64,000 nucleotides of DNA, taken from sequence record MN850630.1; one strand, 5' to 3'. The first letter of the stretch is position 1; every line of letters starts with the position of its first letter. The notes beneath the pieces were generated by a model. That model saw only the letters and a program-made list of their open reading frames with translations, did no database searches and had not been told where the DNA came from. Below are positions 15,458 through 49,398 of the stretch, in pieces. The position numbers and the translations under genes were made by a program. Origin of the DNA: Escherichia phage naam.

Positions 15458-15468
15458 AAAGAGGGTAA

Positions 15469-15735
15469 ATGAAACTAACTCAGTTTTTATGGGGACTGGT
15501 TGCGGCATCTGATGACCCTACGAAAGTATCCCAATCTAAGCTATGGTCGAACATAGGCATGGCGGTGATGACTGGGGTGTTTATTCATATGGGGTATAAT
15601 GATACGCTTCCTGAATGGTATGCGTGGATATACGCGCCTTCAGTAGCTTGCCCCCAGCTTATTAGCAAATTCATCTCGCTCCGGTGGGGTTGCCAGCACC
15701 CTGACCACGTTAAAAACGAAGAGCAAAAAGCTTAA
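15469..15735 (+). CDS. Hypothetical small membrane protein
   Basis: 88 aa with one hydrophobic segment; RBS agaggg. Confidence 0.45.
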   Translation: MKLTQFLWGLVAASDDPTKVSQSKLWSNIGMAVMTGVFIHMGYNDTLPEWYAWIYAPSVACPQLISKFISLRWGCQHPDHVKNEEQKA

Positions 15736-20500: not shown

Positions 20501-23175
20501 CTGCACTGAGATCAAACATGGATGGGACATCCATGTCCATGCAAATTCCGGTAACAAACGGATACAAACGTGTTGTGATGATCATTAAGTGCGACCTGAT
20601 AGGTAAACAAGTTCTTGCAGAAAACGGGACATCCACACATCCTTTTGAGATCGCTCTGCACTATCAGTTTGCTGACTCACCTTTTGCAGGGGATAAGAGA
20701 ATATCTGATACAGACGCACAGCGTTGTAAGAAAGTCTTGTTGGGTGCAGGTTGGTGGTGGTATGAGTTTGATTTAACAGACAAATTCACCGACACGTCTA
20801 AAGTTGTAACAGGACTTCGTCTAGACCTTGGCGAGAACATGCACAAAGCTGTTTGTGATGGCACCTATGGTGACCCTACAATATACCTAAAATATGTTTC
20901 TTTTGAGCATCCGGAAGATGTTGTCTACGGTCCAAAACTGAGATTGTTTGGCAGCTGGATTGCAAAAGATAGGGTAGGCATGGGTAAGAAGGTAAGAGGG
21001 TTCTTGGTTGATGCAGGAACAGAAGACATGCTGGTTAATGCAGTATGGCCTGAATTACCTGGGACTCAGTGGGACAACTCAGCCAAATCTATAAACTGGT
21101 TTAACATTCATAGGGCCATGTGGACCACTAACTGCTACTTGTGGAGAGAGCTTAACGATCAGGCCTTTGGATTCAGCGATGGTAGAAGGATGGCGATCAT
21201 TTGCTGGACAACACTGCAAAGATGTTATGACCATGACTATGAGATTGGGGGCAGGGCATGGAAAAATATCAGGGATAGAATCATAACCAATTTTGCAGAC
21301 GACAACGGTGGTGGAGCACATAACTTTGGCACAAGCCGACTCATCCATTTGAACGGATCCTCAGCCTACAAGAAAGAAGGTTACTCTGGGTCTATGATCG
21401 AGTGGGGTCTGGTGAAAGATGCTCGCGTATTGATGGGCCAGCAACTTGCTGCCGCAATAGGTCCCAGCGCAGTGCAGTCGGTTAAACCAGCGTGGTTCGA
21501 TATTCCATTGTGGTCACCCGGAACACCGGGAACTGCTGCAATCAACCCTACCACTGGGGATCTAGAAATCTCCTGGGAGGACTTGAAGCAGGTCGGCGGT
21601 TGGGACAAAACAGGGTACCAGGTTCAGTGGTGGAGAGCTGATGGATCTTTAGCTGCTGATGAGTTTGTTAAGGACAATTTCTACACTATGTCCTCTGCAA
21701 AAGCACAGCAATTATTTGGTCAGGCAACTCCGTCAACGATCACCATGTCTATGTGCTGTAAAGACAACAGGACTGGAGCTTTGGGGCCAAGGGTTGCTAA
21801 AGTTTTCTCAGGTATTAAATGGAATCTACCTGTCCAAAGTATTTCATGGAAGCAAATAGGTGATAACAAGCTGCTGGTTACCCCTGCCTGTCAGTTCAAC
21901 GCAACTCTTAACGTTGATCCTGCTGTTGCGGCAAACTCAGCTAAAGCTTCTGACTTCTCTGTGTCTAACACTGCTATGGCAGATGTGAGGAAGATTGACA
22001 CGCTGAACGCCAGAATTACCTGTAAAAACACTTATGGCACATTCCAGATCATCAACAACTTCACAGATGCTGATTCTAAGGTAGTGAGGACAGCAAGCCA
22101 GACTTTGAGTTTAGGAACTCTGGCCTATGCGGCCCTGATCACTGAACAGTCGGCAACACTCCAAGGAGGTGGTGTAGGCAAGTCCATTACAACACCTGTG
22201 TGGAAGCCAAATGAGTGGGTTGTGTTTGATTTGACTGTGGACTTCTCCAGCGATAATAACTGGACATGGGTAAGGAATTGTTTGTCACAGTTGATGGGCG
22301 GTCCAAGCTCCGTTAGTGATAGTCACGACTCTACTGACCCGAGTGTGTTCCAGGTAGGTAAAACTCACCCAGAGACTGGAGAAACGTTGCCTGACAGGAA
22401 GTATGCTTTGGTTTGCATCTCTTACGGGAAGGCAGATGTCACCTTCTCAGGGACACACACTTATAACGGAACCTACAACTTCTCAAGGAAGTATAGTCTC
22501 AAAGCAGGGAACATTATAGACGAGGTTGGTGTGCTGTATAATCCGGGCAACGGCATAGGGATTGTGGGTGGTAAACTGCAGATGCAGGAACCTTCTATTA
22601 CCCCTTCCAACGTATCCGGGATTAGAAAGACTTGGGAAAGTAGTAATACCAACATTGCAACAGTGGATGCCACCACAGGACTGGTAACATTTAAAGCTAT
22701 TGGGAATGTCACCATAAAGTTTGTAGTTACAGATGATGCAGGGCGCAAAACGTCTTCAACATCTTTTACTGTCAAACAGATGGCACCACAGTGGAGAATG
22801 TGGATAGGTACAGCAACAAACGGGGCATACCCTAATCCGGCAGGTACTTCTGGTATGAAGACTTTCTCTACAAGCAAACCGATGGAGTACGGCAGCGGTC
22901 CTAAGGTAGGGCAGATGGTGTACTTTGGTGCGTATATTCCTGAAATTATAGGGCTTCCTAGAAGTCAGCTTCAGTTGCTGTTTGGGGCTGGTGTTGACGA
23001 TCTTGCCACTTTCGGGTATAGCGACAACATCGAGGCTGCAAGGAGTTCAGGATGGGTAGGGTTCAGAATGGAGTCTGGAAAGGAAGGCAGGATTCTAGGG
23101 ACAGCCTCTATAGGTGTTATGTTCCCTGGTGACCAGCAGTATCGTCTAGAAGCCTACGCAACCTTTTCTCGTTAA
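17539..23175 (+). CDS. Giant (1878 aa) putative virion host-recognition protein with Big_2-like Ig domain near the C-terminus
   Basis: Single uninterrupted ORF; segment ITPSNVSGIRKTWESSNTNIATVDATTGLVTFKAIGNVTIKFVVTDDAGRKT resembles bacterial Ig-like group 2 domains; ends at a bidirectional terminator. Confidence 0.65.
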   Translation: MLPIPLLKLGRHFLDKRGGIKELAVLSYPIDNSDGTSNTVSYVNSLAILFDDGQLNITGYNRFGECRTGDLDTINYPNEAAWNVDHVWRADRAFVIRTFDNKFFYIGCTAGLIGSEAAGGNDVCVREWTPLPEQIVTGLHLDTHPERLVEVMGGVNNTVWVIAAPEADGMLHLYGSGNNTYGSLHVDKSQHATPVKIGETSESPETGPWKNPRINCEVHDNSVIFGGPNGFWIAGYDFLRNNSKNTLVYPAEHVTLDQFKGIPVGETWKGFMCGPNGAIIATERMHKPDDQQLVNVFYGQDVWGDDTWRSLNITYTHEVIMARGYGTSGIFFNNGTKQYRGFSRNLCNDIGAQSANNSPRANFIHYQALATAKYVEQRMPVSWTESVYFQGIHREGFLGTFCVVNGKLWWSGIPRGSFSGSNNLFGGRLNSQGFTEIPENWYKNVPVDSWGIEDIFDVNGVSNVSNIYIGDTVKMKLKPQPEGATFIIDKIELVNAAGTVVTDANYQFSTNWNHGGANEVVVTQYNRNINRRGLYSIKITYHDKHGTGRTYTTRTLNWNTIVPAYPSNGKWHTVGRNKQFHVNDTVYFGLNGTQPAVEGDTSYMVRLHRMDAGSVTYDVTQEIYDQRRATYDNIVKTQALWEFNPNGKGGKMLQVNEQNGTSLTVHEHPDPWPDPGKPHPGARTLKIVSHDAGYFGIRWEATVRYVDGTTNNIGITLGGTSEDNSLKIAYTPRGISIDNMDVVRNGYGDVNVKVTLGEHLGGERIIMYAFDHDPRTNGTYANQAWSYLINAPEPNTKEFYYGMKRDVCKKTGTHDWIAICVKDERTAWDEPVNRWFIGIPTRSDKYVAEYIVCMGGTNLNMCWNEDANKYSDYDYMRDYSCNLWFNQTTGYPPRQARVNPAIFTDTQVFLTKQANEVQTFKNKYDPNKWFYNCYGAFFWGPGELPGGGSCLNEATYASDYIMGQVKKYKIIPGPETLGNAVDPYIIMTALRSNMDGTSMSMQIPVTNGYKRVVMIIKCDLIGKQVLAENGTSTHPFEIALHYQFADSPFAGDKRISDTDAQRCKKVLLGAGWWWYEFDLTDKFTDTSKVVTGLRLDLGENMHKAVCDGTYGDPTIYLKYVSFEHPEDVVYGPKLRLFGSWIAKDRVGMGKKVRGFLVDAGTEDMLVNAVWPELPGTQWDNSAKSINWFNIHRAMWTTNCYLWRELNDQAFGFSDGRRMAIICWTTLQRCYDHDYEIGGRAWKNIRDRIITNFADDNGGGAHNFGTSRLIHLNGSSAYKKEGYSGSMIEWGLVKDARVLMGQQLAAAIGPSAVQSVKPAWFDIPLWSPGTPGTAAINPTTGDLEISWEDLKQVGGWDKTGYQVQWWRADGSLAADEFVKDNFYTMSSAKAQQLFGQATPSTITMSMCCKDNRTGALGPRVAKVFSGIKWNLPVQSISWKQIGDNKLLVTPACQFNATLNVDPAVAANSAKASDFSVSNTAMADVRKIDTLNARITCKNTYGTFQIINNFTDADSKVVRTASQTLSLGTLAYAALITEQSATLQGGGVGKSITTPVWKPNEWVVFDLTVDFSSDNNWTWVRNCLSQLMGGPSSVSDSHDSTDPSVFQVGKTHPETGETLPDRKYALVCISYGKADVTFSGTHTYNGTYNFSRKYSLKAGNIIDEVGVLYNPGNGIGIVGGKLQMQEPSITPSNVSGIRKTWESSNTNIATVDATTGLVTFKAIGNVTIKFVVTDDAGRKTSSTSFTVKQMAPQWRMWIGTATNGAYPNPAGTSGMKTFSTSKPMEYGSGPKVGQMVYFGAYIPEIIGLPRSQLQLLFGAGVDDLATFGYSDNIEAARSSGWVGFRMESGKEGRILGTASIGVMFPGDQQYRLEAYATFSR

Positions 23176-23184
23176 CAAGGGGGT

Positions 23185-23219
23185 AAATAAAAAAGGGGCC
23201 GTTTGGCCCCTTTCTTTTT
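23185..23219. terminator. Bidirectional intrinsic terminator between convergent gene blocks
   Basis: A-tract, ggggcc-gttt-ggcccc hairpin, T-tract; sits between the + strand giant gene and the first - strand gene. Confidence 0.85.
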
Positions 23220-23223
23220 ATAG

Positions 23224-23424
23224 TTAGTAATACTCCCAACATGCCCCATCTTCAGACGGCTTGACGCGCTTACCTTTATGGTCAACATAGGTATAGCCAC
23301 AACCTTCACAAATAACAGGTGCTGCATAGCCTTCCTTCCACTGATCCTCAGTGATCAGACCTTCCAAATCTTTGCAGTCAAAGCCAAACAACTCTTCAGA
23401 GCAATCTTTACAAAAATCAGCCAT
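23224..23424 (-). CDS. Small zinc-ribbon protein
   Basis: 66 aa with CxxC...CxGC cysteine pairs. Confidence 0.55.
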   Translation of the reverse strand: MADFCKDCSEELFGFDCKDLEGLITEDQWKEGYAAPVICEGCGYTYVDHKGKRVKPSEDGACWEYY

Positions 23425-23427
23425 TTC

Positions 23428-23835
23428 TCAGTCCTCGCATTTAACAAATTTTTCTACAGATCCACCAAGCACAGCTTGTTGTTTGATGGCACTTTCTTCA
23501 TCATAGTGGATAGACTTATGTTCCGTACCTCCAAACTTACCTGTGTGGAAGGTGTGCACCCAAATCTCTTTAGGAAGGGATTTATTCTCTTCTTCCACCA
23601 ACTCCCACATTCCCCATAAGTGATCTGTGATATCTCTGATGAAATATCCCTCGCCGAGGTTTGTATTCACACTATAAGCTGATTCGTGATCTCCACAAAT
23701 ATAACGGAAGGCGGTGTACTCTTTCCCTGGCGTGAAGTGGGTATCCATTAGTATGGCTGTTAAAGAATTAGGGTCTCGAAAGCCCAAGAACTTTAGTTTA
23801 ACAATTTCGACATTTACATCTGCAAGATTATCCAT
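23428..23835 (-). CDS. Hypothetical protein with weak metallophosphoesterase-like motifs (D-x-H, GDHE)
   Basis: Track start TTG 23892 lies inside the promoter; internal ATG at 23835 has RBS agaggag and is 20-30 nt downstream of the -10. Confidence 0.5.
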   Translation of the reverse strand: MDNLADVNVEIVKLKFLGFRDPNSLTAILMDTHFTPGKEYTAFRYICGDHESAYSVNTNLGEGYFIRDITDHLWGMWELVEEENKSLPKEIWVHTFHTGKFGGTEHKSIHYDEESAIKQQAVLGGSVEKFVKCED

Positions 23836-23863
23836 GACGATCTCCTCTGTTTGGTTGGTGAGA

Positions 23864-23892
23864 ATTATATATAGATCTGGTGGTGGTGTCAA
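23864..23892 (-). promoter_or_regulatory. Consensus sigma70 promoter on the minus strand (TTGACA-17-TATAAT)
   Basis: Minus-strand reading aagcTTGACAccaccaccagatctataTATAATtctc. Confidence 0.7.
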
Positions 23893-23996
23893 GCTTAATT
23901 TTAAGAGATCTGAGAGGGTATTTTATTCAGGAAGGCAATCGCACAGGGTGGAGAAATTTATGAAGGCACAGGCCTCGTTTGAGGCCTTAAATTCTA

Positions 23997-24377
23997 TTAT
24001 GACACTTTGACATAGCGCTCTGACAAAGCTGGGAAGCCAAAAGTAGTGCCTATACTACCATAGGCTATCCACCATTGGAGTTCATCGTGACACCATTTTC
24101 CGATCAGGAAGGTGCTGGGATAGCGGGTCAGTATTTTGGCATAAGCTTTAGGATCTGCATCTTCTGGGATAATGATGCTTGGAATATCTTTGTTATGACC
24201 ACAGCAGCAGTTTAGCGTTTTCAAACCTGCTGCCCACAAACTCATGATAGGCTTAGCCATACACTTATCAAGGCACACACGTTTTTTGCCGTCACGAAGA
24301 TTTTTAGGCACATCAACGATAACATTTGGATGCTTGGCACCTTTCACTTTCCAATTATAGGATTTACACTTGCACAT
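23997..24377 (-). CDS. Hypothetical Cys-rich protein
   Basis: 126 aa with CKCK, CLDKC, NCCCGHN and WCHDE clusters; putative metal binding. Confidence 0.5.
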   Translation of the reverse strand: MCKCKSYNWKVKGAKHPNVIVDVPKNLRDGKKRVCLDKCMAKPIMSLWAAGLKTLNCCCGHNKDIPSIIIPEDADPKAYAKILTRYPSTFLIGKWCHDELQWWIAYGSIGTTFGFPALSERYVKVS

Positions 24378-24427
24378 TTAATCAGTCTCCGTCTAGAAAG
24401 CCGCACTATACGTTTTTGAGGTATACT

Positions 24428-24598
24428 TTACTTAAAGTCTTTATCACCTGCCACGATTGCATGAATCCACTCATTGTGATGCTCAATAGCGGTGAGATGT
24501 AACATGATGTAGTGATCGTCATTGCCAAACATGATATGATAGGCTTTGGCAGCATTTTGATATAACTTCCACATCAGGTAATGATATCTTCGCCTCAT
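24428..24598 (-). CDS. Hypothetical small protein (56 aa)
   Basis: Not in the ORF track (under 60 aa); ATG with RBS ggag inside the end of the upstream gene; fills an otherwise empty gap. Confidence 0.3.
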   Translation of the reverse strand: MRRRYHYLMWKLYQNAAKAYHIMFGNDDHYIMLHLTAIEHHNEWIHAIVAGDKDFK

Positions 24599-24603
24599 GG
24601 CTC

Positions 24604-25074
24604 TTACTCCGGTTCAGGATCTGGGTAATCTTCAATAATAAAGGGCCATCCGTTCCGCTTAGCCTCAGACTTATACTCAATCTCCTTCATTGCAAACTCT
24701 AACTGATTCTTAGCCGGAATACATGCCGGAGAATCATCAATCCAGATATCTGGGTAGATATCAAACTGCGCCAGGTAGGCTGCCTTCTGAACACCACCTG
24801 TGTAGAACACACCAACATCGAGCTCCTTGCGCCAATACTCAATGTCTACATTGTCTTGAGTAATGAATCGGAAAGTCACAAGGTAGACTGTCCACCCCTC
24901 CTTCTTCAGATCCCTGATCAGGCTGGAGAAGATGAAAGGGCTCGCATTAAACGTTCCATCAAAGTCGATGGCAATGATGTGCGTGCCGTGGCGAGTCTCA
25001 TATGGATTGCTCGTGGTAAGATTGCTGTAATTAAAAGGGACTTCTTCCCCGCAGTAGCTGTAGTCCATATTCAC
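24604..25074 (-). CDS. HAD-superfamily phosphatase-like protein (possible nucleotidase)
   Basis: HAD motif I IAIDFDGTF near the N-terminus and a later WIDDSP motif. Confidence 0.6.
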   Translation of the reverse strand: MNMDYSYCGEEVPFNYSNLTTSNPYETRHGTHIIAIDFDGTFNASPFIFSSLIRDLKKEGWTVYLVTFRFITQDNVDIEYWRKELDVGVFYTGGVQKAAYLAQFDIYPDIWIDDSPACIPAKNQLEFAMKEIEYKSEAKRNGWPFIIEDYPDPEPE

Positions 25075-25346
25075 ACCTTCTCGTTGATAAATTTACGGGC
25101 GGTTTGGTGAGTTGTTTCTGCTGTCTTCAGAATGATATTAATTTTATCGTCAAGATCATTCATCTCGGCAGTTAATTCAGGAATCTCTCCGGCATGCATG
25201 GTGAAATCATACATAGACATGCCCAAGATCTCATTGATGCGGCGGTTGCATTCTGCAGCACGCTGGTTCATTTTCCAAGCTAACACCAAAGCCTCCTGCG
25301 TAGCCTCTAGTGCAAAATCTAATACGTCGGCCTCTTCTTTCGTCAT
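25071..25346 (-). CDS. Hypothetical protein
   Basis: 91 aa ORF, start overlaps the downstream gene (ATGA coupling). Confidence 0.5.
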   Translation of the reverse strand: MTKEEADVLDFALEATQEALVLAWKMNQRAAECNRRINEILGMSMYDFTMHAGEIPELTAEMNDLDDKINIILKTAETTHQTARKFINEKV

Positions 25347-25403
25347 CTCAGTCTCTCCTGTTGTATTGTTGGTAGGTGTATGAACACCTTATAACTCACC
25401 TTT

Positions 25404-25970
25404 TTATTCAAACTGCAACAGTAAGTCCACCACCGCGCTAGGTCTGTCAACAAATTCCCCAGGTCCACATGCCCACAGAGGGTATCCGTCTACATACCGC
25501 CAAATCCAACCTGCAGTGTGGAGTTCGAGCAGGGCAGTACCGTCCTTGCTGTCAACCACTCTTTCCCACAGTGTTGGGCAGCGAAGCTTGAGAATCGGAT
25601 CACCTCCCTTATACCCGTCCATGTAGATACCCATTGCAAAGTTCAGCATCATCTTTTTGTGCACTGATCTCTTACTGAGGGTGCTCATCACTTCCTCTTT
25701 GTGAATGTTTGTAAGCTTCTCTTTGGCTACCCGCAGATCGTTGCAACCATTGTTCAGCAGATCTTCCAAACACTTAATCCGAAGGTCGTGAATGTCTTTG
25801 TCGTGTACCGTTGGCACAGGGTCGTAGCGGTATAGCACTGTTGATACAAGGTTGCTCGGGTGCGGGTCTGACAGCAACCCATAGCCCCAATACTCTTCTG
25901 TATCTGAAAGGACAAGACACCCAATGTCTCTGTCAAGCTTTCCTGTGTTGTAAGCCACATTGACCGCCAT
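25404..25970 (-). CDS. Hypothetical protein
   Basis: 188 aa ORF in the minus-strand cassette. Confidence 0.55.
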   Translation of the reverse strand: MAVNVAYNTGKLDRDIGCLVLSDTEEYWGYGLLSDPHPSNLVSTVLYRYDPVPTVHDKDIHDLRIKCLEDLLNNGCNDLRVAKEKLTNIHKEEVMSTLSKRSVHKKMMLNFAMGIYMDGYKGGDPILKLRCPTLWERVVDSKDGTALLELHTAGWIWRYVDGYPLWACGPGEFVDRPSAVVDLLLQFE

Positions 25971-25972
25971 GA

Positions 25973-26218
25973 CTATAGCTCCACTAGCAAAGTGCTTTCA
26001 AAGTGCCGTTCATGCAGACCGTTGTAAGTGACCACCTCCACAACGCCATCACGGACATATGGAGCCATCATAGTGGTATAATCCCCAAACGGGTTGGTAT
26101 TGTCACTAACCACAACCACCTTCTGCCCTTCCTTGGCAGAGTGCCAAATAGATCTGCACTTCATCAGGTGTTCGAGGGCTCCAGGTAAAATTTTGTTACG
26201 TTCTTTACGGGTCTTCAT
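25973..26218 (-). CDS. Hypothetical protein
   Basis: 81 aa ORF, tightly packed. Confidence 0.5.
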   Translation of the reverse strand: MKTRKERNKILPGALEHLMKCRSIWHSAKEGQKVVVVSDNTNPFGDYTTMMAPYVRDGVVEVVTYNGLHERHFESTLLVEL

Positions 26219-26664
26219 AACAGGTATAGCTCCTTATGAAAGTGATCTTTTAATTTCTCACTGAGAAACTTCTTGATACCTTCCTCTAAAGTGTTTTCGA
26301 TGTAGTCCAGCTTAACTGCTTCGATGGACATATCATAGATCGCCAGCTCTAAGCTGTCAAGTCCCATCATAGCATGAACCATAAGATTTTCATCTTCAGA
26401 TACATTCAGGGGACTTCCTATAACATCTGGAGGCAGAATAGTTTCCCAATTATTCTGGGTGGTAGTTCTCCCTCCCTCTACTTTACGGCGCAGTTCGAAT
26501 GTGTTCTTAGTGTAGAACACTTCATAAGAAACGATACGACTGTCACTCTCGTAATAAACGAAGTTCAGGTAGGAGCCTAGCCGCAGTCGGCAAACTTCTA
26601 CCCCAAACCATTGTTTCTTATAAGAATTCAGGCTAATGCTGTCGCATTCACGTTTGCTCAACAC
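26215..26664 (-). CDS. Hypothetical protein
   Basis: 149 aa ORF, ATGA-type overlap with the downstream gene. Confidence 0.55.
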   Translation of the reverse strand: MLSKRECDSISLNSYKKQWFGVEVCRLRLGSYLNFVYYESDSRIVSYEVFYTKNTFELRRKVEGGRTTTQNNWETILPPDVIGSPLNVSEDENLMVHAMMGLDSLELAIYDMSIEAVKLDYIENTLEEGIKKFLSEKLKDHFHKELYLL

Positions 26665-26680
26665 GGCTCTCTCCTTTTTG

Positions 26681-26917
26681 TTAATCTTCGTAAATCAGGA
26701 TTTCTGCTTTAGGTTTTCGTGCTTTCATGTCCAGCTCTATCCAGTGCACCATAGCTGTTTCAAGAAAAACAGCCTGGATGCATCCGTCCTCAGCAGCGTG
26801 CCCTAGCAGCATGACAAGATCTTCTCCTTCGTCATCTGCATCACGAACATACAGAATCTCTCCAGGTTCAAAATCTTTCACAATCTGATTGTTGGATAAT
26901 TTACGAATTTTTGCCAT
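26681..26917 (-). CDS. Hypothetical protein
   Basis: 78 aa ORF. Confidence 0.5.
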   Translation of the reverse strand: MAKIRKLSNNQIVKDFEPGEILYVRDADDEGEDLVMLLGHAAEDGCIQAVFLETAMVHWIELDMKARKPKAEILIYED

Positions 26918-26918
26918 A

Positions 26919-27182
26919 TCAGAAACCCTCTAAAAAGCTCTTGTAGAAAACAATCTCAGTATCAACACCAGTCACAATCTTGTCGTTCCTGATTTCATCG
27001 GTAAGATAGGTATCAAAACGCAGAACCTGGGTCGTGTTGTCACACATCCACTCAGCTGTGACCATTGCGAAAATCTTAGCATCTTCATTATCTGGTGTGA
27101 ATGTTACCACCTCACCGCATTTAAACTTTTCAATAGGTTGCGTATTAGCTTTCGGTTCTGCAATAGTAATTTTCGTGGTCAT
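26919..27182 (-). CDS. Hypothetical protein
   Basis: 87 aa ORF. Confidence 0.5.
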   Translation of the reverse strand: MTTKITIAEPKANTQPIEKFKCGEVVTFTPDNEDAKIFAMVTAEWMCDNTTQVLRFDTYLTDEIRNDKIVTGVDTEIVFYKSFLEGF

Positions 27183-27448
27183 TACTCTTCCTCCATAGTT
27201 TCACCAAATACTTCGATACAGGCATCGAGCTCGGTTGCTTTCAGCTCCCCAACAAAATCTTTCAGTTCTTTCTCGTCCAGATCGTAAGCCCACACACAAG
27301 AAGAACATGCAGATTTCACAATCAGCAGCGTAGATACACGACCTGACTCTGTGATCATGCTCACAATGGTTCCTACAGGGAACGTGTTGATAGCTTTTTT
27401 AACTGGGCGTTCAGCTTTGATTACTACCTCTGTTGCCATAAATAACAT
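27182..27448 (-). CDS. Hypothetical protein
   Basis: 88 aa ORF, start overlaps the downstream stop. Confidence 0.5.
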   Translation of the reverse strand: MLFMATEVVIKAERPVKKAINTFPVGTIVSMITESGRVSTLLIVKSACSSCVWAYDLDEKELKDFVGELKATELDACIEVFGETMEEE

Positions 27449-27454
27449 CCTCTC

Positions 27455-28936
27455 TCACTTGGCGTACTCGATTAATTCTACAGTTTTCCCAAAGCTCGGG
27501 ATATAATTTTTATTATACCCCTCGGTGAGAACCCATAAAGTATCGTACTTTTTCCACTTGTTGTCAACAGCCTTTTGTTCAAAGTTATGCTCAAAGTATA
27601 GGTCGGTCAGGACGATGACATCTTTTGCATTCGGTATGTTGGCATCCAGATACTCAAACACACAAGCAGCTGTTGTGCCCCATGTTGAGTGGACCTCATA
27701 GTTGATCATCTCGTCTATGTTGCCGCGAGTGTATACTTTAACCTCTCCAACCTCAGTTGACCAACAGAACATTGTAACCTTAAACTCTTTATACAGATTG
27801 CACAATCCGGTGATTTCATTGAACATTTTCTTTAAAGTTCTTTGAGAGATCGAGCCAGAAACGTCTAAAGCCACCACAATATCTATGGTGTTTTCCGGAT
27901 TACGACCAGGAACAATAACGTGCTGGTTCTTGTTTATAGCCCCAACTTTTCGCATTGTGCTGGTCAAAGAACCAGATCGGCGACCAGGTTTTCTGTAGGT
28001 CAGTTCAGCCTTTCGTTTAGACAACATGCGTTGCTTAATAATGTCTATATAGTTGATTACAGGCTTGCCTCTGTTCTTGACGAACTCACGCACCGCCTCA
28101 GGGCAACGACCTCCGGAAGCTTGCATTGCTGCCTCCAGCATGTCACCAGAGTCCTGCATGGCCTGATCTTTATCAGATTGGCTGATTACAGGTTGTGGCT
28201 GATCATACCCCATAGCCTTTCCAAGATCATCACTGGTGCCACCGTTCCCACTCATGTGATCATCGGTTTGTCGCTTATCCCCTTGAGAGTTCTCACCTTT
28301 ACCGCTCTTACTTTTACCGTTATTCTGATCTCTTTGCTTATCAAGAACTGCATAGACGTTCTCAGCAATCCATCCATGAAACTTCATGTCGCAGTAGCAG
28401 CTGGCTAAGAAGCCAAAAGGCTTACCTTTTACGAACGTAGTGCTTTTCCCCTTCGGGAAGAAAACACAAGGGGGCTTACTAAAGTCAACCACAAGACCTG
28501 TGTTGATAACGTGATCACAAGCAATATTGAACAGTTCTGGCTCAAAACTTTTACCACGGACCAGGTGATCACAGATAATATGCCCCACCTCATGTGACAG
28601 AAGAAAGGCCACCTCCTTCACAGATTTGGGGGAATAGAAAACCTCAGCCATCCCAAACTGTTCGTCAGTTAGAGAAGCCTTAAGAATAGCCCTGCGTTCA
28701 TCAGCCAATCCCATAATGAACTCAGGACTGTAATAGATGCGTTTATGGTCGGTTGCCATGGTAGAGCACCATGTGTGGTTTTCTACGAACTGCAACCCTG
28801 ACAGTAGCGTGCCATAAAACGGCAGCTTTTCAAGGAGATACATACGTGCAGCCTGCAACATTCTCAGGGCATCATCTTTCTGTGAGGCAATGATTTCTGA
28901 ACTTCTGCTATCCATTAAAACTCCAGAAGGGGCCAT
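27455..28936 (-). CDS. vWA-domain protein with N-terminal HExxH metallopeptidase-like domain (partner type of MoxR-class AAA+ ATPases)
   Basis: HEVGHIICDH zinc-peptidase-like motif in the N-terminal third; MIDAS-like VVALDVSGSIS in the C-terminal third. Confidence 0.7.
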   Translation of the reverse strand: MAPSGVLMDSRSSEIIASQKDDALRMLQAARMYLLEKLPFYGTLLSGLQFVENHTWCSTMATDHKRIYYSPEFIMGLADERRAILKASLTDEQFGMAEVFYSPKSVKEVAFLLSHEVGHIICDHLVRGKSFEPELFNIACDHVINTGLVVDFSKPPCVFFPKGKSTTFVKGKPFGFLASCYCDMKFHGWIAENVYAVLDKQRDQNNGKSKSGKGENSQGDKRQTDDHMSGNGGTSDDLGKAMGYDQPQPVISQSDKDQAMQDSGDMLEAAMQASGGRCPEAVREFVKNRGKPVINYIDIIKQRMLSKRKAELTYRKPGRRSGSLTSTMRKVGAINKNQHVIVPGRNPENTIDIVVALDVSGSISQRTLKKMFNEITGLCNLYKEFKVTMFCWSTEVGEVKVYTRGNIDEMINYEVHSTWGTTAACVFEYLDANIPNAKDVIVLTDLYFEHNFEQKAVDNKWKKYDTLWVLTEGYNKNYIPSFGKTVELIEYAK

Positions 28937-28948
28937 TGGCCCCTGTCA

Positions 28949-29992
28949 TTATTTAACGTGTTTGAAAATACCTGCCAACTCGGTCATTGTCATGCGGGTG
29001 GTCTTCATAAGATCTGTCATAGCTTTCTCCATAATTGGAGATACTACCATAAAATTTCCTTTAGTGAAACCTTTATTCCAGTCGGTCACCAACAGTGGTT
29101 TAAGTCCAGCCCCGAGACGTTCACCTGTTAAAGCACAGCATTTGCGAATATACGAACTCTTAAATTGGCTGAACGACAGATCAACTTTCATACCTGCATC
29201 GTAGAACGTTTGACAATAGAAAGTATAAGCCTTAGCAATCTCAACATCATCAGGCAGTGCAGGAACCTCTTCTGCAATCTCCTCTTCGACCTTCTGAGGC
29301 TCTTTTTCCTCTTCAGGAGTCTGTTCTTCAATTTCTTCTGTCACAGTCTCGTTCACGATGTCTGAAATATGTTTGTTGGCTGCACGATCAGCCATGAAAT
29401 TTTTAAAATCCTGCATTGGTGACATATCTTCTTCCTCTTCGTCAAATAGTGCTAGTTTATCTTCTTCTGTCCCGTATTGCAAGATGAAATCTTCAAAAGT
29501 ATAATCACCTTTCAATTTCTCCATACGCTCTTCGCTCAGGTGGAGCATCATCTGCTGGACAATTTTTCGATCGGTTTTGTCTTTAATCAGGATTGCAGTC
29601 TTTTTATCTACCAGACAGTCTTTCAGAGCGTTGCACCTCAACCCTACCACACAACAATTGTCAATTGCGTAAGGACCTTCATCATCTATACGCTCTAAAG
29701 ATGGGTAGAAAGGATTTCCCAGTCCGTTTTCATCTGTGTGCATGTCGAAAGGTATAAGAGTGTAGTCGCATACCCCTTCTCCTAAAAGTTTTTTACCAAA
29801 TAGGAGGTATTCTTCCCACGACAGGTCGAACTCTATATCTCGTTTCCGTGCATTATTCTGTTTGCGTCTATATTTTTTGAGCAGGCGCTCTAACTCTTCT
29901 GGTGTATAATATTTTTCAAGATTCATGAGTTGTCTCTCGTGCTCTGTAAGTGAAGAAATCGTATCAATTGTCTCAACAGATGTCAACATCAA
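28949..29992 (-). CDS. Hypothetical protein with very acidic central linker and possible degenerate HNH-like motif
   Basis: 347 aa; TTG/ATG start at the divergent promoter hub; LERIDDEGPYAIDNCCVVGLRCN; long D/E-rich stretch. Confidence 0.55.
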   Translation of the reverse strand: MMLTSVETIDTISSLTEHERQLMNLEKYYTPEELERLLKKYRRKQNNARKRDIEFDLSWEEYLLFGKKLLGEGVCDYTLIPFDMHTDENGLGNPFYPSLERIDDEGPYAIDNCCVVGLRCNALKDCLVDKKTAILIKDKTDRKIVQQMMLHLSEERMEKLKGDYTFEDFILQYGTEEDKLALFDEEEEDMSPMQDFKNFMADRAANKHISDIVNETVTEEIEEQTPEEEKEPQKVEEEIAEEVPALPDDVEIAKAYTFYCQTFYDAGMKVDLSFSQFKSSYIRKCCALTGERLGAGLKPLLVTDWNKGFTKGNFMVVSPIMEKAMTDLMKTTRMTMTELAGIFKHVK

Positions 29993-29999
29993 AAACGTG

Positions 30000-30028
30000 T
30001 TGACTTTACTCTAAATCTCCGATATAGT
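30000..30028 (+). promoter_or_regulatory. Sigma70-like promoter (TTGACT-17-TATAGT) in the divergent hub
   Basis: -35 at 30000-30005, -10 at 30023-30028; drives the 30069 gene. Confidence 0.6.
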
Positions 30029-30068
30029 GCACCCATTCGAAAGAAAACTAACATAGGAGCACTTACTC

Positions 30069-30968
30069 ATGGCAAATCTTAACAGTTTTAGCACCAGGTG
30101 GCAACAGGATATAACAACCAATCTTTCAGCTGGGGATATCCTTTCTGCAATTTACGAGGCTTTGGATGATAAAGCTACTTCAAGATCGGTTTGTACTAAT
30201 CCGCTAATTCCTATGGTGATGAAGGTAATTGAGCGGAGGTTGGTATCCGGGTCTGATAAGTGGACATACCTTGATAATGGAGGGCATACTTACTCCAACG
30301 GATATGTTGATATAAAAGTAGAATACGCAGTATCATACCGCCGGAGCGGTTCTGTAACTTTCAACTTCTCTGGAGGTTTTCGATCTCTGGCTACTTCACC
30401 TTTTGTTTCCTCAGAGGAGAAGTATGAGCTGCCATTTCTTTGGATGATGGCTAACGCGACAGGAAAAACCCCCGTTAGCATCCGAGTAAAATACAACTAC
30501 AACGGATCTAGTAAGATCTATGCCGAAAGTGTTTCAGCAAGTTTTTATTTTGTGATGGGGGATGGAATCCTCAAACATATAAAGATGTGCGATATGCATG
30601 ATGTTATAAATGAAGTGACTGATAAGAATGTTCTAGTGAAAGACCTCAATAATTTTTATACACCTGGAGACTATTACGTCAACCGTCCACTGTGCATCTT
30701 TAATGCCGCACACCCTTTGGGTGAGTATTTGATCGCTAATAGCGATATTGCCAATAACCGCTTCGAGGTGGCAAGAGTACAGAATGGGGTATTGACATCT
30801 TGCAAGAGCGGTGATAAGTTTACCGAAGAAGAGATGGGTGTTTTAGAGATGATGGGATATAAGTGTAGCCTTTGGGTAGATGAGGTGTTTAATGACGGCA
30901 TCTATGGACAGGATATTTACCCACTAAAGAAGTATACTGATTCCAGTTTAATTTACGCGGAGATTTGA
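30069..30968 (+). CDS. Hypothetical protein
   Basis: 299 aa ORF with RBS aggag; first gene of the long + strand block. Confidence 0.6.
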   Translation: MANLNSFSTRWQQDITTNLSAGDILSAIYEALDDKATSRSVCTNPLIPMVMKVIERRLVSGSDKWTYLDNGGHTYSNGYVDIKVEYAVSYRRSGSVTFNFSGGFRSLATSPFVSSEEKYELPFLWMMANATGKTPVSIRVKYNYNGSSKIYAESVSASFYFVMGDGILKHIKMCDMHDVINEVTDKNVLVKDLNNFYTPGDYYVNRPLCIFNAAHPLGEYLIANSDIANNRFEVARVQNGVLTSCKSGDKFTEEEMGVLEMMGYKCSLWVDEVFNDGIYGQDIYPLKKYTDSSLIYAEI

Positions 30969-32255: not shown

Positions 32256-32561
32256 GTGGGGGCAGGGATGCCGCTTAGAAGAGTAATAAACATGTTATAC
32301 CAGAAACACGAACTTTGTGCAGAAAAAGAGTTAAATTTTGACAAAGTTATCCACAAATATTGTTACGGGAAAACCGGAAGATACCTAAAAAGGTGCACTC
32401 CAGCATTCTTTCACCCCAGCAGGCGACTAAGCCCTGAAGAAGCAACAGCAGAAAGGGTTGCATACAACTGGGAAGTTGTGTACGATATTGACAGATCCGA
32501 TGTGACATCTGTTTTGGAAAACTTTGAAAACACTTACACACAAGTAGAGGACTTTTACTAA
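32256..32561 (+). CDS. Hypothetical protein
   Basis: 101 aa ORF. Confidence 0.5.
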   Translation: MGAGMPLRRVINMLYQKHELCAEKELNFDKVIHKYCYGKTGRYLKRCTPAFFHPSRRLSPEEATAERVAYNWEVVYDIDRSDVTSVLENFENTYTQVEDFY

Positions 32562-33745
32562 TGTCAAGAAACGTATTTGAAAGTGGTCAAATCACTGTCC
32601 GTGAGTTGCCAGCCATCATTCAGTTTGCCCAGCGTCATAACCGATCTGTCCTGATTTTAGGACCAATGGGCGTGGGGAAGAGCCAGGTGATGAAGCAGAT
32701 CGCTAATAATATGTTCGGTGAGCGAGATGACAACCTGGTTGACGTGCGGCTGTCAGATAAAGATCCTGCCGACTTATCTGGGCTACCTATCCCTGTAGAA
32801 GCGGATGGAACTACACGTACAGTGTTTGCAATTCCAGAATTTTGGCCTGCAGATCCGGACTGGAGCGGAATTATCTTTCTGGATGAGCTCACTCATGCAG
32901 ATAATTACCTGCAAAAGGTTGCAATGCAAATTATGCTCGACCACAAGTGCGGCACCTATGCATTCCCCAAGGGCTCTGTTTTTGTAGCTGCAGGTAACCG
33001 TTCTACAGATGGTGCGGTTCTCTCGGCGCTCGAAGCTCCTCTGGCTAACCGCTTTATCATTGTAGAGGTTACAAGCAATGCAGAGGTGTTTATTGAGGAC
33101 TACGCATTCCTCAACGGGGTGCACTCATCTGTAATTGGGTATCTGAAAAGAGTTCCATCAGCTATCGATAATTATGAGGCTATGGCTGAGATTAATTGTC
33201 CATCTTTTGCCACACCGCGATCTTGGGTTGCTGCATCTGACATCTTGCACGATTTTGACAGCGGTATTATTTCTGACGCTATGGCCCGTGTTCTTCTGCA
33301 AGGTGCTATTGGTCACACTGCAGCGGTAGAGATCTGGACTTACCACACTAAGAAACGCAACTTACCGGAAATCGGTCGGATTATGGCAGGGGGTTGCAAA
33401 GAATACGTAGGTCCTAAACAGCCAGACATCTTGTGGATTCTTGGGTCTGAAGGTTGTATCGCTATTCGTAATATGATGGAAAATGCAAGTATCTCTGACG
33501 AAGATCTTGTTAGCTGTGTGGCAAACTTCCTCGATTTCCTTTGGGAAAATTTCAAGGACGAGAACCGAGATTTTGTATTCTCAGTCTTTATGGCAATGAT
33601 GAAGCCTAATGCCTTAGGAAATGCCTTACTTATCGGTAAAGGGCGTGACAAGATTGTTGCTCAGCTGATCAAAGCATACCCAAACCTGATGAAGATTGTA
33701 AAAGAGTTTGGTGAAGAGTTTAGCGCCATTTTAGCTAAAGCTTGA
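32561..33745 (+). CDS. AAA+ ATPase, MoxR/CobS-like (AAA_5 type)
   Basis: Walker A GPMGVGKS, Walker B IIFLDEL, sensor-1-like AAGNR. Confidence 0.7.
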   Translation: MSRNVFESGQITVRELPAIIQFAQRHNRSVLILGPMGVGKSQVMKQIANNMFGERDDNLVDVRLSDKDPADLSGLPIPVEADGTTRTVFAIPEFWPADPDWSGIIFLDELTHADNYLQKVAMQIMLDHKCGTYAFPKGSVFVAAGNRSTDGAVLSALEAPLANRFIIVEVTSNAEVFIEDYAFLNGVHSSVIGYLKRVPSAIDNYEAMAEINCPSFATPRSWVAASDILHDFDSGIISDAMARVLLQGAIGHTAAVEIWTYHTKKRNLPEIGRIMAGGCKEYVGPKQPDILWILGSEGCIAIRNMMENASISDEDLVSCVANFLDFLWENFKDENRDFVFSVFMAMMKPNALGNALLIGKGRDKIVAQLIKAYPNLMKIVKEFGEEFSAILAKA

Positions 33746-34184: not shown

Positions 34185-34685
34185 GTGAAAATTAAGATCT
34201 TTGCTATTATTTTGAGCGCACTTTTATCGCTGCCTGTTGTTGCAGCACCAAAACAAAAAGTATATCATACTTGCAAGCCATCAGATACTAAGGAAAACAT
34301 TCTGGCATGCAATATCTACAGGGAAGCTAGAGGAGATGGCACGATGGGTATGCTGGCATCTGGGTTTGCCACACTAAACAGGAAATCCCACCCTAAATAC
34401 CCAGACACTATAAGAAAGATTGTCTACCAACCTAACCAGTTTTCGTGGACAAACCACGGCAAAACTTTTAAGGTGACAGAAAAAGATTCATGGGATCACG
34501 CTAAAAGTCTTGCAAAGATGCTTCTAAAGGTCTATAATAACAACCATGTTGCATACATGGCTATGGACATAACAGGTGGAGCAACACACTACCATACAAC
34601 CAAAGTACGACCGAAATGGGCAAAAAAGATGCAGAGGACAGCTCAATTCGGGAGCCATATCTACTACAAGGAGCGCAATAAATGA
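34185..34685 (+). CDS. Secreted cell-wall hydrolase, SleB/CwlJ-like (candidate endolysin)
   Basis: GTG start; N-terminal signal-peptide-like segment KIKIFAIILSALLSLPVVAAP; motifs NIYREARGDG, LNRKSHPKYPDTI and QPNQFSW typical of the SleB family. Confidence 0.65.
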   Translation: MKIKIFAIILSALLSLPVVAAPKQKVYHTCKPSDTKENILACNIYREARGDGTMGMLASGFATLNRKSHPKYPDTIRKIVYQPNQFSWTNHGKTFKVTEKDSWDHAKSLAKMLLKVYNNNHVAYMAMDITGGATHYHTTKVRPKWAKKMQRTAQFGSHIYYKERNK

Positions 34686-36664
34686 TCGTAAACAGTAATG
34701 AAACTAAAGCGGTACTAACCGGTAATATGGAGGTCACCAGGGGCTCAATTTCTCTGAACAAAGAGACTTTTGGGCTAATCATTAAAGGGATTTACGAAGA
34801 TAAGGTGCTGGCAAGCTGCCGTGAACCAATCTTCAATGCCGTGGACTCCCATGTTGAGTCTGGACGGGGTGATGTACCGATCATTATTCACTCTCCTACA
34901 GACCTTGAACCATACTTCTTTGTGCAGGACGTCGGATTGGGCATGTCAGAAGAGATGGTCCGCAACACTTTCATGAACCTCGGGGAGTCAACCAAGCGCA
35001 ACAGCAACGCTCTGGTAGGTAATAAAGGTGTTGGTTCAAAGGCTCCGTTCAGCATGGTGGACACTTTCGATGTTATCAGTGTGCACAATGGTGTTGAAAG
35101 CACATATCTATTGTTCTTGGATCAGGGTATCCCAAACGTTACCAAGATCCGTGAGCGGAAGACTGAAGAGCACAACGGGGTAAAAGTTCAGTTCCATGTT
35201 AAGAAAGAGCATGTCCTGAAATATCGCACTGCTATTGCATCGTGCTTACGCTATGCGAAGTTTCCGTTCATCGTCACCGATCCTATGACCAGTAAGATGT
35301 TAGAAGGTGACAAGGTTGAGGCACAGTATCATTACGAGAAGGATGGCTGGAAAATGACCATCCTGAAAGGTTATACCAGTTCTGATGAGAGCCGTGTTGT
35401 GATGGGTCACCAACCTTACCGCTCTAAGTTTCTGGAAACATTGACAGACTACCCTGCAATCTGCGTGGAAATTCCTATTGGGGATTGCAATATTAACCCT
35501 GGGCGTGAATGGACCATAGAGGGCCATGACGACGGTGGATTCCAGGATCGCCTGGAGGCATTTGTTAAAGAAGGTATACGTCTTCGCGGGGCAGAAGTTG
35601 TTGCAGAACTGGAGACGGCAAAAACCTCCGCAGAAGCACGTGAAATGATGAAGAATAGTGGAGTGTTCGGACACATCTTCGGCAAGAACTTTATGTGGAA
35701 CCGTTGGGAAGAAACAGGGCTTGGCGACTTAGGCGATTGTGAAATTTTCGCTGGCGGCTTAAATAAAGGCCGCATAGGCTATGCTCGTTACGGAAAGTCG
35801 GAGTTCTTACGAGGTGTATACCTTGTATTTAACGACGGAGACGGCAAATATAACCGGAATAAGTGTAACTACTTAAGCGAGATCACCGGACGCAACGTTT
35901 TCTATTGCCGGAACACGGATCTGGTGAAAGAGTTTAAAGAGGCGGCACACCATCCGTTCTTTGCAGATACGGTCAAATTGTTATCGGAGCTTCCACGCCG
36001 ACCTGCGAAGAAAGGTGAAACCAAAACTCGTTACGAGCCAGGCTACTGGGTTAAGAAGCTTAGAGAGGATGGCTACTTCCATCGTGAGCGCCTCACGAAG
36101 GCAGAGTTCAAGAAGATTAAGCATTGCATCCCTTATGAGGGGGATATCCAACGGGGAAGCTGCTGGCTGGGCCAGATGAGTAACATCTACCAGCAAAATT
36201 ATGACCGTGTGCGTGCTGCACTCCAGATTCCTGAAGGTGAAGATCTGTACCTGGTATCAGAATCTCGTCTGCTTTGGACTGATCCTGATTGCCAGTATGT
36301 TACAGAGAAGAATGTGGAACATTTGTTGAAAGAGGATGCTTGGAAATTCTTACTGACTCGCGCAGCAAATGAAACTTCATATGACAGCCTATATAGACAA
36401 TTAGGGAAAATTATCCCCATGCAGGATTTTGGAAATTATCGGCCACATTTCCACAAGTGGGAAGGTAACACCGCGTGGAAGCACAGTGAGCTAAATCATC
36501 GTGCCAAAATCTTAATCGCCAACCGGGTTAAGTGCGGGAAGGCCTATATTGCAAGATTGGAAAAGAAATATCCACTTTTGAAGCATGTGGGCTTGAAATA
36601 TTGGGACACTCCTGCTATGATTGAATACCGTGAACTGATCGATACAAAGAATAACATCAAATAA
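34682..36664 (+). CDS. GHKL/HATPase_c-type ATPase domain protein (rIIA-like, tentative)
   Basis: Bergerat-fold-like motifs VQDVGLGM and GNKGVGSKAPF in the N-terminal region; 660 aa. Confidence 0.45.
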   Translation: MIVNSNETKAVLTGNMEVTRGSISLNKETFGLIIKGIYEDKVLASCREPIFNAVDSHVESGRGDVPIIIHSPTDLEPYFFVQDVGLGMSEEMVRNTFMNLGESTKRNSNALVGNKGVGSKAPFSMVDTFDVISVHNGVESTYLLFLDQGIPNVTKIRERKTEEHNGVKVQFHVKKEHVLKYRTAIASCLRYAKFPFIVTDPMTSKMLEGDKVEAQYHYEKDGWKMTILKGYTSSDESRVVMGHQPYRSKFLETLTDYPAICVEIPIGDCNINPGREWTIEGHDDGGFQDRLEAFVKEGIRLRGAEVVAELETAKTSAEAREMMKNSGVFGHIFGKNFMWNRWEETGLGDLGDCEIFAGGLNKGRIGYARYGKSEFLRGVYLVFNDGDGKYNRNKCNYLSEITGRNVFYCRNTDLVKEFKEAAHHPFFADTVKLLSELPRRPAKKGETKTRYEPGYWVKKLREDGYFHRERLTKAEFKKIKHCIPYEGDIQRGSCWLGQMSNIYQQNYDRVRAALQIPEGEDLYLVSESRLLWTDPDCQYVTEKNVEHLLKEDAWKFLLTRAANETSYDSLYRQLGKIIPMQDFGNYRPHFHKWEGNTAWKHSELNHRAKILIANRVKCGKAYIARLEKKYPLLKHVGLKYWDTPAMIEYRELIDTKNNIK

Positions 36665-36674
36665 GGAGACCAAG

Positions 36675-49369: not shown

Positions 49370-49398
49370 TTGACAACAGTGATGGGGCCTAATATAAT
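49370..49398 (+). promoter_or_regulatory. Consensus sigma70 promoter (TTGACA-17-TATAAT) with gggcc/ggccc inverted repeat around the -10
   Basis: -35 at 49370-49375, -10 at 49393-49398. Confidence 0.7.

Follow-up and report, generated by a model that had tools for sequence, protein, structure and literature searches.

The gene 11–26 operon of an rV5-like Escherichia phage and a candidate counter-defense role for its vWA-metallopeptidase

The subject of this report is a contiguous block of minus-strand genes, defined from the open reading frame (ORF) listing, at positions 23224–29992 of a 64,000-nucleotide stretch of Escherichia phage naam (record MN850630.1). The whole stretch is referred to as the window and the block as the cassette. 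The cassette is the leftward operon (genes 11–26) of an rV5-like Vequintavirus, an architecture that was published in 2013 and is thus already known. We consider it probable, at roughly 0.62, that this is a leftward early operon whose conserved core acts on the host, and that its vWA-metallopeptidase and a MoxR ATPase help the phage to overcome host defense.

In the proposed mechanism, host sigma-70 RNA polymerase would start at back-to-back promoters near position 30000 and transcribe leftward through 14 genes, to stop at a bidirectional terminator shared with a late tail-fiber gene; two internal consensus-type promoters may boost the distal genes. Within the conserved core, a Srd-like pseudo-nuclease is a candidate for host takeover, and the most likely partner of the metallopeptidase-vWA protein is the MoxR AAA+ ATPase, whose gene lies on the other side of the promoter hub. 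The ATPase would remodel a host target, which the MIDAS of the vWA domain would hold and the HExxH domain would cleave. Such a remodel-and-cleave activity would help the phage to overcome host defense, with DS-28, a predicted two-gene defense system of the clinical isolate CFE311, as a candidate target. The other small genes would be genus-specific accessory genes, among them a HAD-like phosphatase candidate, a zinc ribbon shared across phage families and a variable array of paralogues. More tentatively, at somewhat less than even odds, the vWA-peptidase, the ORF17-family protein and MoxR may form one ATP-driven counter-defense machine that inactivates DS-28 and perhaps other systems.

Identity and layout of the cassette

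A megablast search with positions 23000–30200 matched 121 phage records. In 113 of them, nearly all Vequintavirus (rV5-like E. coli myoviruses), coverage of the query is 80% or more at 90–97% identity, and the rV5-type records V18, JES2013 and V5 (rV5) cover 100% of it at 96.9–97.0% identity. The window is oriented as the reverse complement of the rV5 record. According to the feature tables, the cassette maps one-to-one onto rV5 ORF26 to ORF11, and its orthologues are located in the same order between tail-fiber gene 27 and gene 10 of rV5. Kropinski et al. (2013, PMC3606486) described four rV5 transcription units, one of which, "genes 11–26", has the same terminator and divergent promoters. 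This unit shares its genes and their order with the cassette at ∼97% DNA identity. It differs in that ORF12 and ORF13 are split in rV5, whereas a single vWA-peptidase gene is present in the window, and the overlapping rV5 ORF23 is probably not a gene. A set of 16 records (MG0656xx) labeled "Campylobacter phage", with Campylobacter jejuni as the host, is 94–97% identical to this rV5-like sequence; the host label looks doubtful.

An earlier note on this DNA, made from the sequence alone, had proposed about 14 leftward genes. The ORF listing and the GC skew, which is below zero between 23 and 30 kb only, bear this out: the cassette holds 14 real genes, contiguous on the minus strand and spaced by −4 to +57 nt, with a 161-nt gap as the single exception. 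Ribosome sites of the GGAG type precede nearly all of the gene starts. Rfam and tRNA scans of the cassette were empty. The features central to the argument are the following.

28949–29926, minus strand: ORF11 orthologue, 325 residues, Srd-like / degenerate endonuclease-VII-like (phrog_3118)
27455–28936, minus strand: ORF12 orthologue, zincin metallopeptidase-vWA fusion, probable start 28915
26215–26664, minus strand: ORF17 orthologue, 149 residues, candidate cofactor of the vWA-peptidase (phrog_6790)
32561–33745, plus strand: MoxR-type AAA+ ATPase (rV5 ORF4), outside the cassette (phrog_1297), annotated MoxR in rV5

The vWA-metallopeptidase and its probable MoxR partner

Pfam domains were found in a single cassette protein, that of the 493-residue ORF at 27455–28936. 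The ORF12 product matches the DUF2201_N metallopeptidase family (PF13203, E 4.6e-28) and the DUF2201 vWA family (PF09967, E 3.6e-11), and contains a zincin motif (HEVGH) and a MIDAS motif (DVSGS). The vWA protein recognized in the earlier note is real, and it has an HExxH metallopeptidase domain in addition. Residues H115, E116, H119, H124, D358, S360, S362 and D445 are invariant in five genomes from four lineages. The gene start at 28915, which has a GGAG ribosome site and is the one annotated in Bas54 and I29, is better than that at 28936.

The MoxR ATPase at 32561–33745 is the probable partner of this protein. Homologues detected by tblastn are present in 670 phage records for the vWA-peptidase and 812 for MoxR, with nearly the same taxon counts, and the two genes co-occur across Schitoviridae, jumbo phages and Vequintavirinae. 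In W70 and in the N4-like phage FBKp27, the vWA-peptidase gene directly follows a same-strand MoxR gene; in CB7, one small HNH gene lies between them. Five non-Vequintavirinae records are common to both tblastn tables, those of an Aeromonas phage, of two N4-like phages and of two jumbo phages, and in all five MoxR is upstream on the same strand within ∼1.5 kb. The pair is divided in Vequintavirus, Seunavirus and Henunavirus, with one gene on either side of the divergent promoter hub.

A fused metallopeptidase-vWA/MoxR pair was described in jumbo phages by Iyer et al. (2021, PMC7824862), who proposed a role in virion assembly and processing. The jumbo-phage pair has the same PF13203-PF09967 fusion, an intact MIDAS and a MoxR-type ATPase in the genome. 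Its two genes are adjacent, whereas here and in Seunavirus and Henunavirus they flank the divergent hub and an ORF17-family gene follows the vWA gene. RavA-ViaA is a cellular example of such MoxR AAA+/vWA chaperone-cochaperone pairs. The genetics in print (see below) point to counter-defense against DS-28 rather than to the virion assembly proposed for jumbo phages.

Two side observations concern this pair. Some PHROG labels look wrong and have spread into RefSeq and Pharokka, namely "HNH endonuclease" for phrog_1314 (metallopeptidase-vWA) and for phrog_3118 (Srd-like). The rIIA gene is located within a few kb of the pair both here (34682–37880) and in the N4-like Klebsiella phage FBKp27, a neighborhood that possibly recurs.

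The ORF17 family and the ORF14–16 array

In Seunavirus and Henunavirus, a gene of phrog_6790, the PHROG of ORF17, overlaps the stop codon of the vWA gene by 17 nt; in Vequintavirus, ORF14–16 lie between the vWA gene and ORF17. The AlphaFold2 (AF2) model of ORF17 (pLDDT 81) is predicted to contain a five-stranded sheet and three helices. Its structural matches in BFVD, PVP-SE1 gp215 (TM 0.70/0.81) and a Hena1 protein (TM 0.64/0.75), support the family assignment at the level of predicted models; among solved structures in the PDB, no fold match was found. An exhaustive HMMER search with ORF17 recovered one real relative, and word-indexed protein searches with ORF17, ORF21 and ORF25 returned near-identical Vequintavirus proteins only. 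ORF17 also aligns weakly with phrog_12385 (hhalign 17%, E 1.4e-3), the gene after vWA in CB7 and W70, with a shared ETxLxPD-like motif, and phrog_12385 may be a distant homologue. Since no third gene follows the vWA gene in N4-like phages, a universal third component of the MoxR/vWA pair is not claimed. The ORF17-family protein is possibly a cofactor of the vWA-peptidase. The "tail protein" label of phrog_6790 looks wrong and is spreading in phage annotations.

ORF14–16 are probably a tandem array of diverged paralogues. The probabilities from pairwise comparison are 98% for ORF14 versus the extra copy in Bas52, 41% for that copy versus ORF15, and 15% for ORF15 versus ORF16. Three copies are present here and four in Bas52 (Bas52 locus, 15188–15714).

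Published transposon data on the relative Bas54

Transposon sequencing (Tn-seq) data are provided by the HIDEN-SEQ preprint (10.1101/2025.11.20.689424), in which Bas54 was compared between K-12 and CFE311. In K-12, the orthologues of the cassette genes (bas54_0042–0056) are classed as "Non-essential", with one "Reduced fitness", and insertions are tolerated at 79–100% of their TA sites (10.1101/2025.11.20.689424). In CFE311, insertions in the vWA-peptidase gene bas54_0055 are depleted (log2 fold change, log2FC, −2.20; p 0.0009; q 0.009; 85 TA sites), as are those in the MoxR gene bas54_0063 (log2FC −7.23) and, nominally, in the ORF17 orthologue bas54_0051 (log2FC −2.28; p 0.028; q 0.195) (10.1101/2025.11.20.689424). 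Genes bas54_0053 and 0054, located between 0051 and 0055, are unaffected, which argues against simple polarity.

The preprint describes DS-28 as a two-gene predicted defense system of CFE311 and reports a specific sensitivity of the Bas54 MoxR knockout to this system when it is cloned in K-12 (10.1101/2025.11.20.689424). The anti-DS-28 genes of Bas54 are bas54_0063 (MoxR) and bas54_0140; the window encodes the MoxR orthologue, while bas54_0140 lies outside it. The vWA-peptidase is not mentioned in the preprint. Its signal arises in the same host where MoxR counters DS-28, a link undrawn in print.

These data bear on the suggestion, made in the earlier note, that the block carries accessory, perhaps anti-defense genes. 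The accessory part is supported by dispensability in K-12, two variable islets and the small number of genes that extend beyond the genus. For the anti-defense part, the depletion of the vWA-peptidase in CFE311 speaks partly in favor; the DS-28 assignment belongs to the neighboring MoxR gene.

Elsewhere in Bas54, the "DNA helicase" gene bas54_0068 (orthologue at 37880–39250, plus strand) is non-essential in K-12 and strongly depleted in CFE311 (log2FC −6.32, q 0), as are bas54_0150–0152, and no explanation is given in the main-text Bas54 results of the preprint. In Extended Data Table 8 (S6/S7), the K-12 versus CFE303 sheet repeats the CFE311 numbers and the CFE311 input file name.

Promoters, terminator and hairpins

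The following transcription-related elements were identified.

23192–23213, both strands: bidirectional rho-independent terminator, common to the convergent late tail-fiber gene (plus) and the cassette (minus)
23864–23892, minus strand: perfect sigma-70 consensus promoter ahead of ORF25-ORF26, TTGACA-17-TATAAT
23970–23987, minus strand: GC hairpin AGGCCUCaaacGAGGCCU, directly after the ORF24 stop, conserved, −13.9 kcal/mol, z −2.5
26332–26360, minus strand: promoter-like site inside ORF17, upstream of ORF18, TTGACA-17-TATGAT, 11/12, a consensus match only
28928–28944, minus strand: GC hairpin AGGGGCCaauGGCCCCU, 7 bp, between the Srd-like and vWA genes
29958–29986, minus strand: leftward promoter P11, TTGACA-17-TACGAT, TG extended −10
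30000–30028, plus strand: rightward promoter, TTGACT-17-TATAGT

The elements that the earlier note had placed at the borders of the block are present. The bidirectional terminator proposed at 23185–23219 corresponds to a GC stem of 9–12 bp at 23192–23213 with a U-run on both strands (minus strand, −19.7 kcal/mol, z −3.6), and the rV5 record likewise annotates a bidirectional terminator, at its 26/27 junction. The stem is conserved in rV5 and Bas52, and its 4-nt loop is inverted (GTTT here, AAAC in rV5 and Bas52). The divergent hub near 30000 consists of promoters arranged back to back (29986–29958, minus; 30000–30028, plus), which match the divergent promoters of the rV5 10/11 junction. Both −35 boxes of the hub lie within the arms of an 8-bp inverted repeat at 29982–30004, GTCAACAT-N7-GTGTTGAC. 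The −35 and −10 boxes and the inverted repeat are unchanged in rV5 and Bas52, and the surrounding hub is nearly identical. Judged by its sequence, the inverted repeat might be a regulator binding site.

The perfect internal promoter reported in the earlier note is also real. Two TTGACA-17-TATAAT sites occur in the window versus 0.01 expected from shuffles. The promoter, at 23892–23864, is intergenic. It falls within the 161 nt that separate ORF24 from ORF25 and precedes the ORF25 ATG (23835) by 29 nt; a GAGGAG ribosome site is located between the promoter and this ATG. In rV5, where this gene-25 promoter is unannotated, the −10 box is TAGGAT rather than the consensus; the TTGACA −35 box is at the same place in rV5 and in the alternative allele of Bas52. 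The perfect promoter would make ORF25-ORF26 a semi-autonomous and exchangeable two-gene unit. The hairpin at 23970–23987 has no clear U-tract, and the replacement between alleles starts just downstream of it, at lower coordinates. The hairpin at 28928–28944, which contains the first ATG of the vWA gene (28936), could be an element for RNA stability or attenuation. Further perfect TTGACA/TATAAT promoters are found on the plus strand of the window at 49370–49398 (spacer 17), 54475 (spacer 16) and 58466 (spacer 16).

The ORF25-ORF26 unit is reminiscent of morons (promoter-gene-terminator units), as it likewise appears to be served by a consensus promoter of its own, with a hairpin upstream and a terminator downstream, and its promoter-proximal gene is exchanged between close relatives. 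Unlike morons, which lie among prophage late genes, it closes an operon of a strictly lytic phage.

A late-type motif, TGGTAAAATA, is present upstream of structural genes and upstream of none of the cassette genes. This late-promoter-like motif, already described in rV5, is repeated on the plus strand of the structural region, at 2533, 8044 and other sites within 2–22 kb. From the sigma-70 consensus sites and the missing TGGTAAAATA, we infer that the cassette is probably transcribed early by the host RNA polymerase. No transcriptome of any Vequintavirus was found in the literature.

Conservation and variable islets

The synteny comparison proposed in the earlier note showed that the gene order of the cassette is kept within the genus (113 records), and that two islets, at ORF25 and ORF14, vary between close relatives. 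Overall, the window and Bas52 share ∼95% DNA identity, with two segments replaced. In islet 1 (23450–23944), the promoter region and ORF25 are swapped for two genes in Bas52; the Bas52/Bas54-type genes are a phrog_12630 member and a 72-residue homologue of the N-terminal half of ORF25. In islet 2 (27195–27424), ORF14 is swapped for two diverged copies. The vWA, MoxR, Srd-like, ORF17 and HAD-like proteins are 98–99.5% identical to those of Bas52, with MoxR at 99.5%.

Only 4–5 of the 14 cassette genes were detected in other genera. Those persisting beyond the genus are the Srd-like, vWA-peptidase, ORF17-family and HAD-like genes. In a Seunavirus, tblastn found only the HAD-like, vWA, Srd-like, ORF6 and MoxR genes near the locus, and a phrog_6790 gene follows vWA. 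The order in a Henunavirus is Srd-like, phrog_10489, vWA and phrog_6790, with MoxR across the hub. In a Certrevirus, only vWA, MoxR and SleB were found within 50 kb.

Srd-like ORF11, HAD-like ORF21 and the small genes

The gene list of the earlier note omitted the 325-residue Srd-like gene at 28949–29926. Its most likely start is 29926 rather than 29992, because the latter overlaps the gene's own promoter. ORF11 matches the PHROG profiles phrog_3118 (E 8e-111), phrog_4592 "decoy of host sigma70" (3.3e-14) and phrog_1400 "Srd" (5.6e-9), and has no Pfam match. Kropinski et al. (2013, PMC3606486) considered rV5 ORF11 a probable Srd homologue. Profile similarity links it to T4 Srd, which is annotated as a sigma-70 decoy or an anti-sigma factor, and its gene appears to come first after a strong early promoter; it is larger than T4 Srd (325 residues), and the family that it matches best, phrog_3118, is a separate one. 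A Srd-like gene opens the operon in Seunavirus and Henunavirus as well. ORF11 is a candidate for host takeover. In Extended Data Table 7 of HIDEN-SEQ, the "putative anti-sigma factor Srd" of the T-even phage Bas37 is depleted in one comparison (log2FC −3.44, q 0.006).

The HAD phosphatase of the earlier note, ORF21, has all four HAD motifs (DxDxT; T; K; DD), and no profile or fold match. The motifs occur in order and at strand ends of the AF2 model (pLDDT 63), which appears compatible with a HAD core, and residues D37-x-D39-x-T41, T67, K97 and D113-D114 are invariant in five homologues. Neither the single sequence nor a five-sequence profile gave a match in Pfam, NCBIfam or the PDB; one member of the family matches PF06189 weakly (E 0.078). 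The protein is named HAD-like, and not a HAD family member, because no known HAD family was matched by profile or by fold. "Phosphatase" genes of CB7 and SPLA5a were considered as ORF21 homologues and dropped, as they do not align with the ORF21 family (15–19% identity).

The remaining cassette genes are listed below. Searches of the small ORFs against Pfam, NCBIfam, PADLOC and PDB sequences gave nothing usable.

23224–23424, minus strand: ORF26 orthologue, 66 residues, CxxC...CxxC zinc ribbon (phrog_2210)
23428–23835, minus strand: ORF25 orthologue, 135 residues, mosaic (N-terminal half phrog_30425; C-terminal 45 residues phrog_3955-type modules)
23997–24377, minus strand: ORF24 orthologue, 126 residues, Cys-rich (phrog_12958, genus-restricted)
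24428–24598, minus strand: ORF22 orthologue, 56 residues, 79% identical to Bas52
24604–25074, minus strand: ORF21 orthologue, 156 residues, HAD-like small phosphatase candidate (motif-based)
25071–25346, minus strand: ORF20 orthologue, 91 residues
25404–25970, minus strand: ORF19 orthologue, 188 residues
25973–26218, minus strand: ORF18 orthologue, 81 residues
26681–27448, minus strand: ORF16, ORF15 and ORF14 orthologues, 78, 87 and 88 residues, probable tandem array of diverged paralogues

Two small proteins recognized in the earlier note are as described there. The zinc-ribbon protein is ORF26, which is 68% identical to gp94 of Felixounavirus Bas63; the cysteines invariant between them are only the four of the ribbon (C5, C8, C39 and C42). 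Its gene has ∼70% nucleotide identity to many Felixounavirus phages and to some phages of ∼112–114 kb. The Cys-rich protein is ORF24, with eight cysteines in 126 residues (C2, C4, C35, C39, C57–59 and C96); it has no match in Pfam, NCBIfam, PADLOC or PDB and no relatives detected outside the genus. The possible metallophosphoesterase, which by list order is ORF25, was not borne out: ORF25 has no Pfam, NCBIfam or PDB match, and no metallophosphoesterase match was obtained for any cassette protein in Pfam, NCBIfam, PHROGs or PDB. ORF19 has no match in Pfam or NCBIfam.

Alternative explanations

Several observations weigh against an early operon whose MoxR/vWA-peptidase pair acts in counter-defense. 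Functional evidence covers at most 4 of the 14 cassette genes, and the Srd-like orthologue of Bas54 is neutral in both K-12 and CFE311. Early timing and promoter use are deduced from consensus matches. In this genus, 3.6 kb separate the MoxR gene from the vWA gene, which lies on the other strand. The DS-28 tie is assigned to MoxR, and the vWA-peptidase is only a candidate for it; its effect is of moderate size and was measured on pooled mutants in a wild isolate, and the depletion of the ORF17 orthologue loses significance once corrected for multiple testing. The unrelated run bas54_0123–0129 also shows values of about −2, so that such values can reflect general or regional effects. Finally, Vequintavirinae are not obviously rich in counter-defense, because they are reported to be unusually sensitive to restriction-modification and are common targets of abortive infection. 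On a rival reading, the cassette would be a set of ordinary early genes of small or no individual effect, with MoxR countering DS-28 alone and the vWA depletion being indirect or noise. Consistent with this are the distance between the vWA effect (−2.2) and that of MoxR (−7.2), the similar values of unrelated gene blocks, the log2FC near 0 of most cassette genes, and the follow-up in the preprint, which is limited to 0063 and 0140. We nevertheless regard this explanation as unlikely, given the q of 0.009 from 85 TA sites and a vWA-peptidase gene that co-occurs with MoxR, and usually directly follows it, across Schitoviridae, jumbo phages and Vequintavirinae. The protein is also 99% identical between genomes that are 95% identical in DNA, with invariant catalytic residues, suggesting a selected, shared function.

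Alternatively, MoxR and the vWA-peptidase (with ORF17) could be an assembly chaperone and processing system for virion or tail-fiber proteins; for the jumbo-phage pair, Iyer et al. (2021, PMC7824862) proposed virion assembly and processing, with reference to an archaeal-virus MoxR-vWA system needed for tail development. Such a role would explain the location by the tail-fiber genes, the cassette adjoining the last lateral tail-fiber gene, and would turn the CFE311 phenotype into a need for a different tail-fiber set; several tail-fiber genes do shift essentiality in CFE311, and phrog_6790 is labeled "tail protein". However, virions still must form in K-12, where 94% of the TA sites in the MoxR and vWA genes accept insertions, and cloning of DS-28 into that host reveals a specific sensitivity of the MoxR knockout. 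The genes also appear to lie behind sigma-70-type promoters without the late motif, the pair is away from tail genes in other genera, and the "tail protein" label has no backing in the present data. An assembly role is therefore quite improbable in our view. The earlier note had instead speculated that two phosphatase-like enzymes and the vWA protein act on a nucleotide or phospho-signaling substrate, such as an immune second messenger that they would degrade. The invariant DxDxT, T, K and DD motifs of the ORF21 family and its HAD-compatible model would fit, but no metallophosphoesterase is detectable in any cassette protein, ORF21 lacks a profile match to known phosphatase families, and its Bas54 orthologue has no CFE311 phenotype. 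The HAD-like gene has no conserved linkage to vWA, whose conserved partners are an ATPase, encoded outside the cassette, and ORF17, and not a phosphatase. This proposal is very hard to sustain.

Implications

The cassette itself is ordinary and already described, and its value is as a pointer to the hypothesis of a MoxR/vWA-peptidase pair acting in counter-defense. The ORF25 and ORF14 islets are sensible places to seek further host-specific factors. The MoxR/peptidase-vWA pair has so far been annotated as HNH endonuclease or assembly chaperone. If the two proteins do cooperate, a function would be assigned to a phage gene pair that is both very common and mis-annotated, and protease-based immune evasion would be testable with existing strains. 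If the counter-defense machine outlined above is real, it would represent a widespread and unrecognized proteolytic class of anti-defense, as the pair is present in ∼700–800 sequenced phages, including N4-like, jumbo and rV5-like phages.

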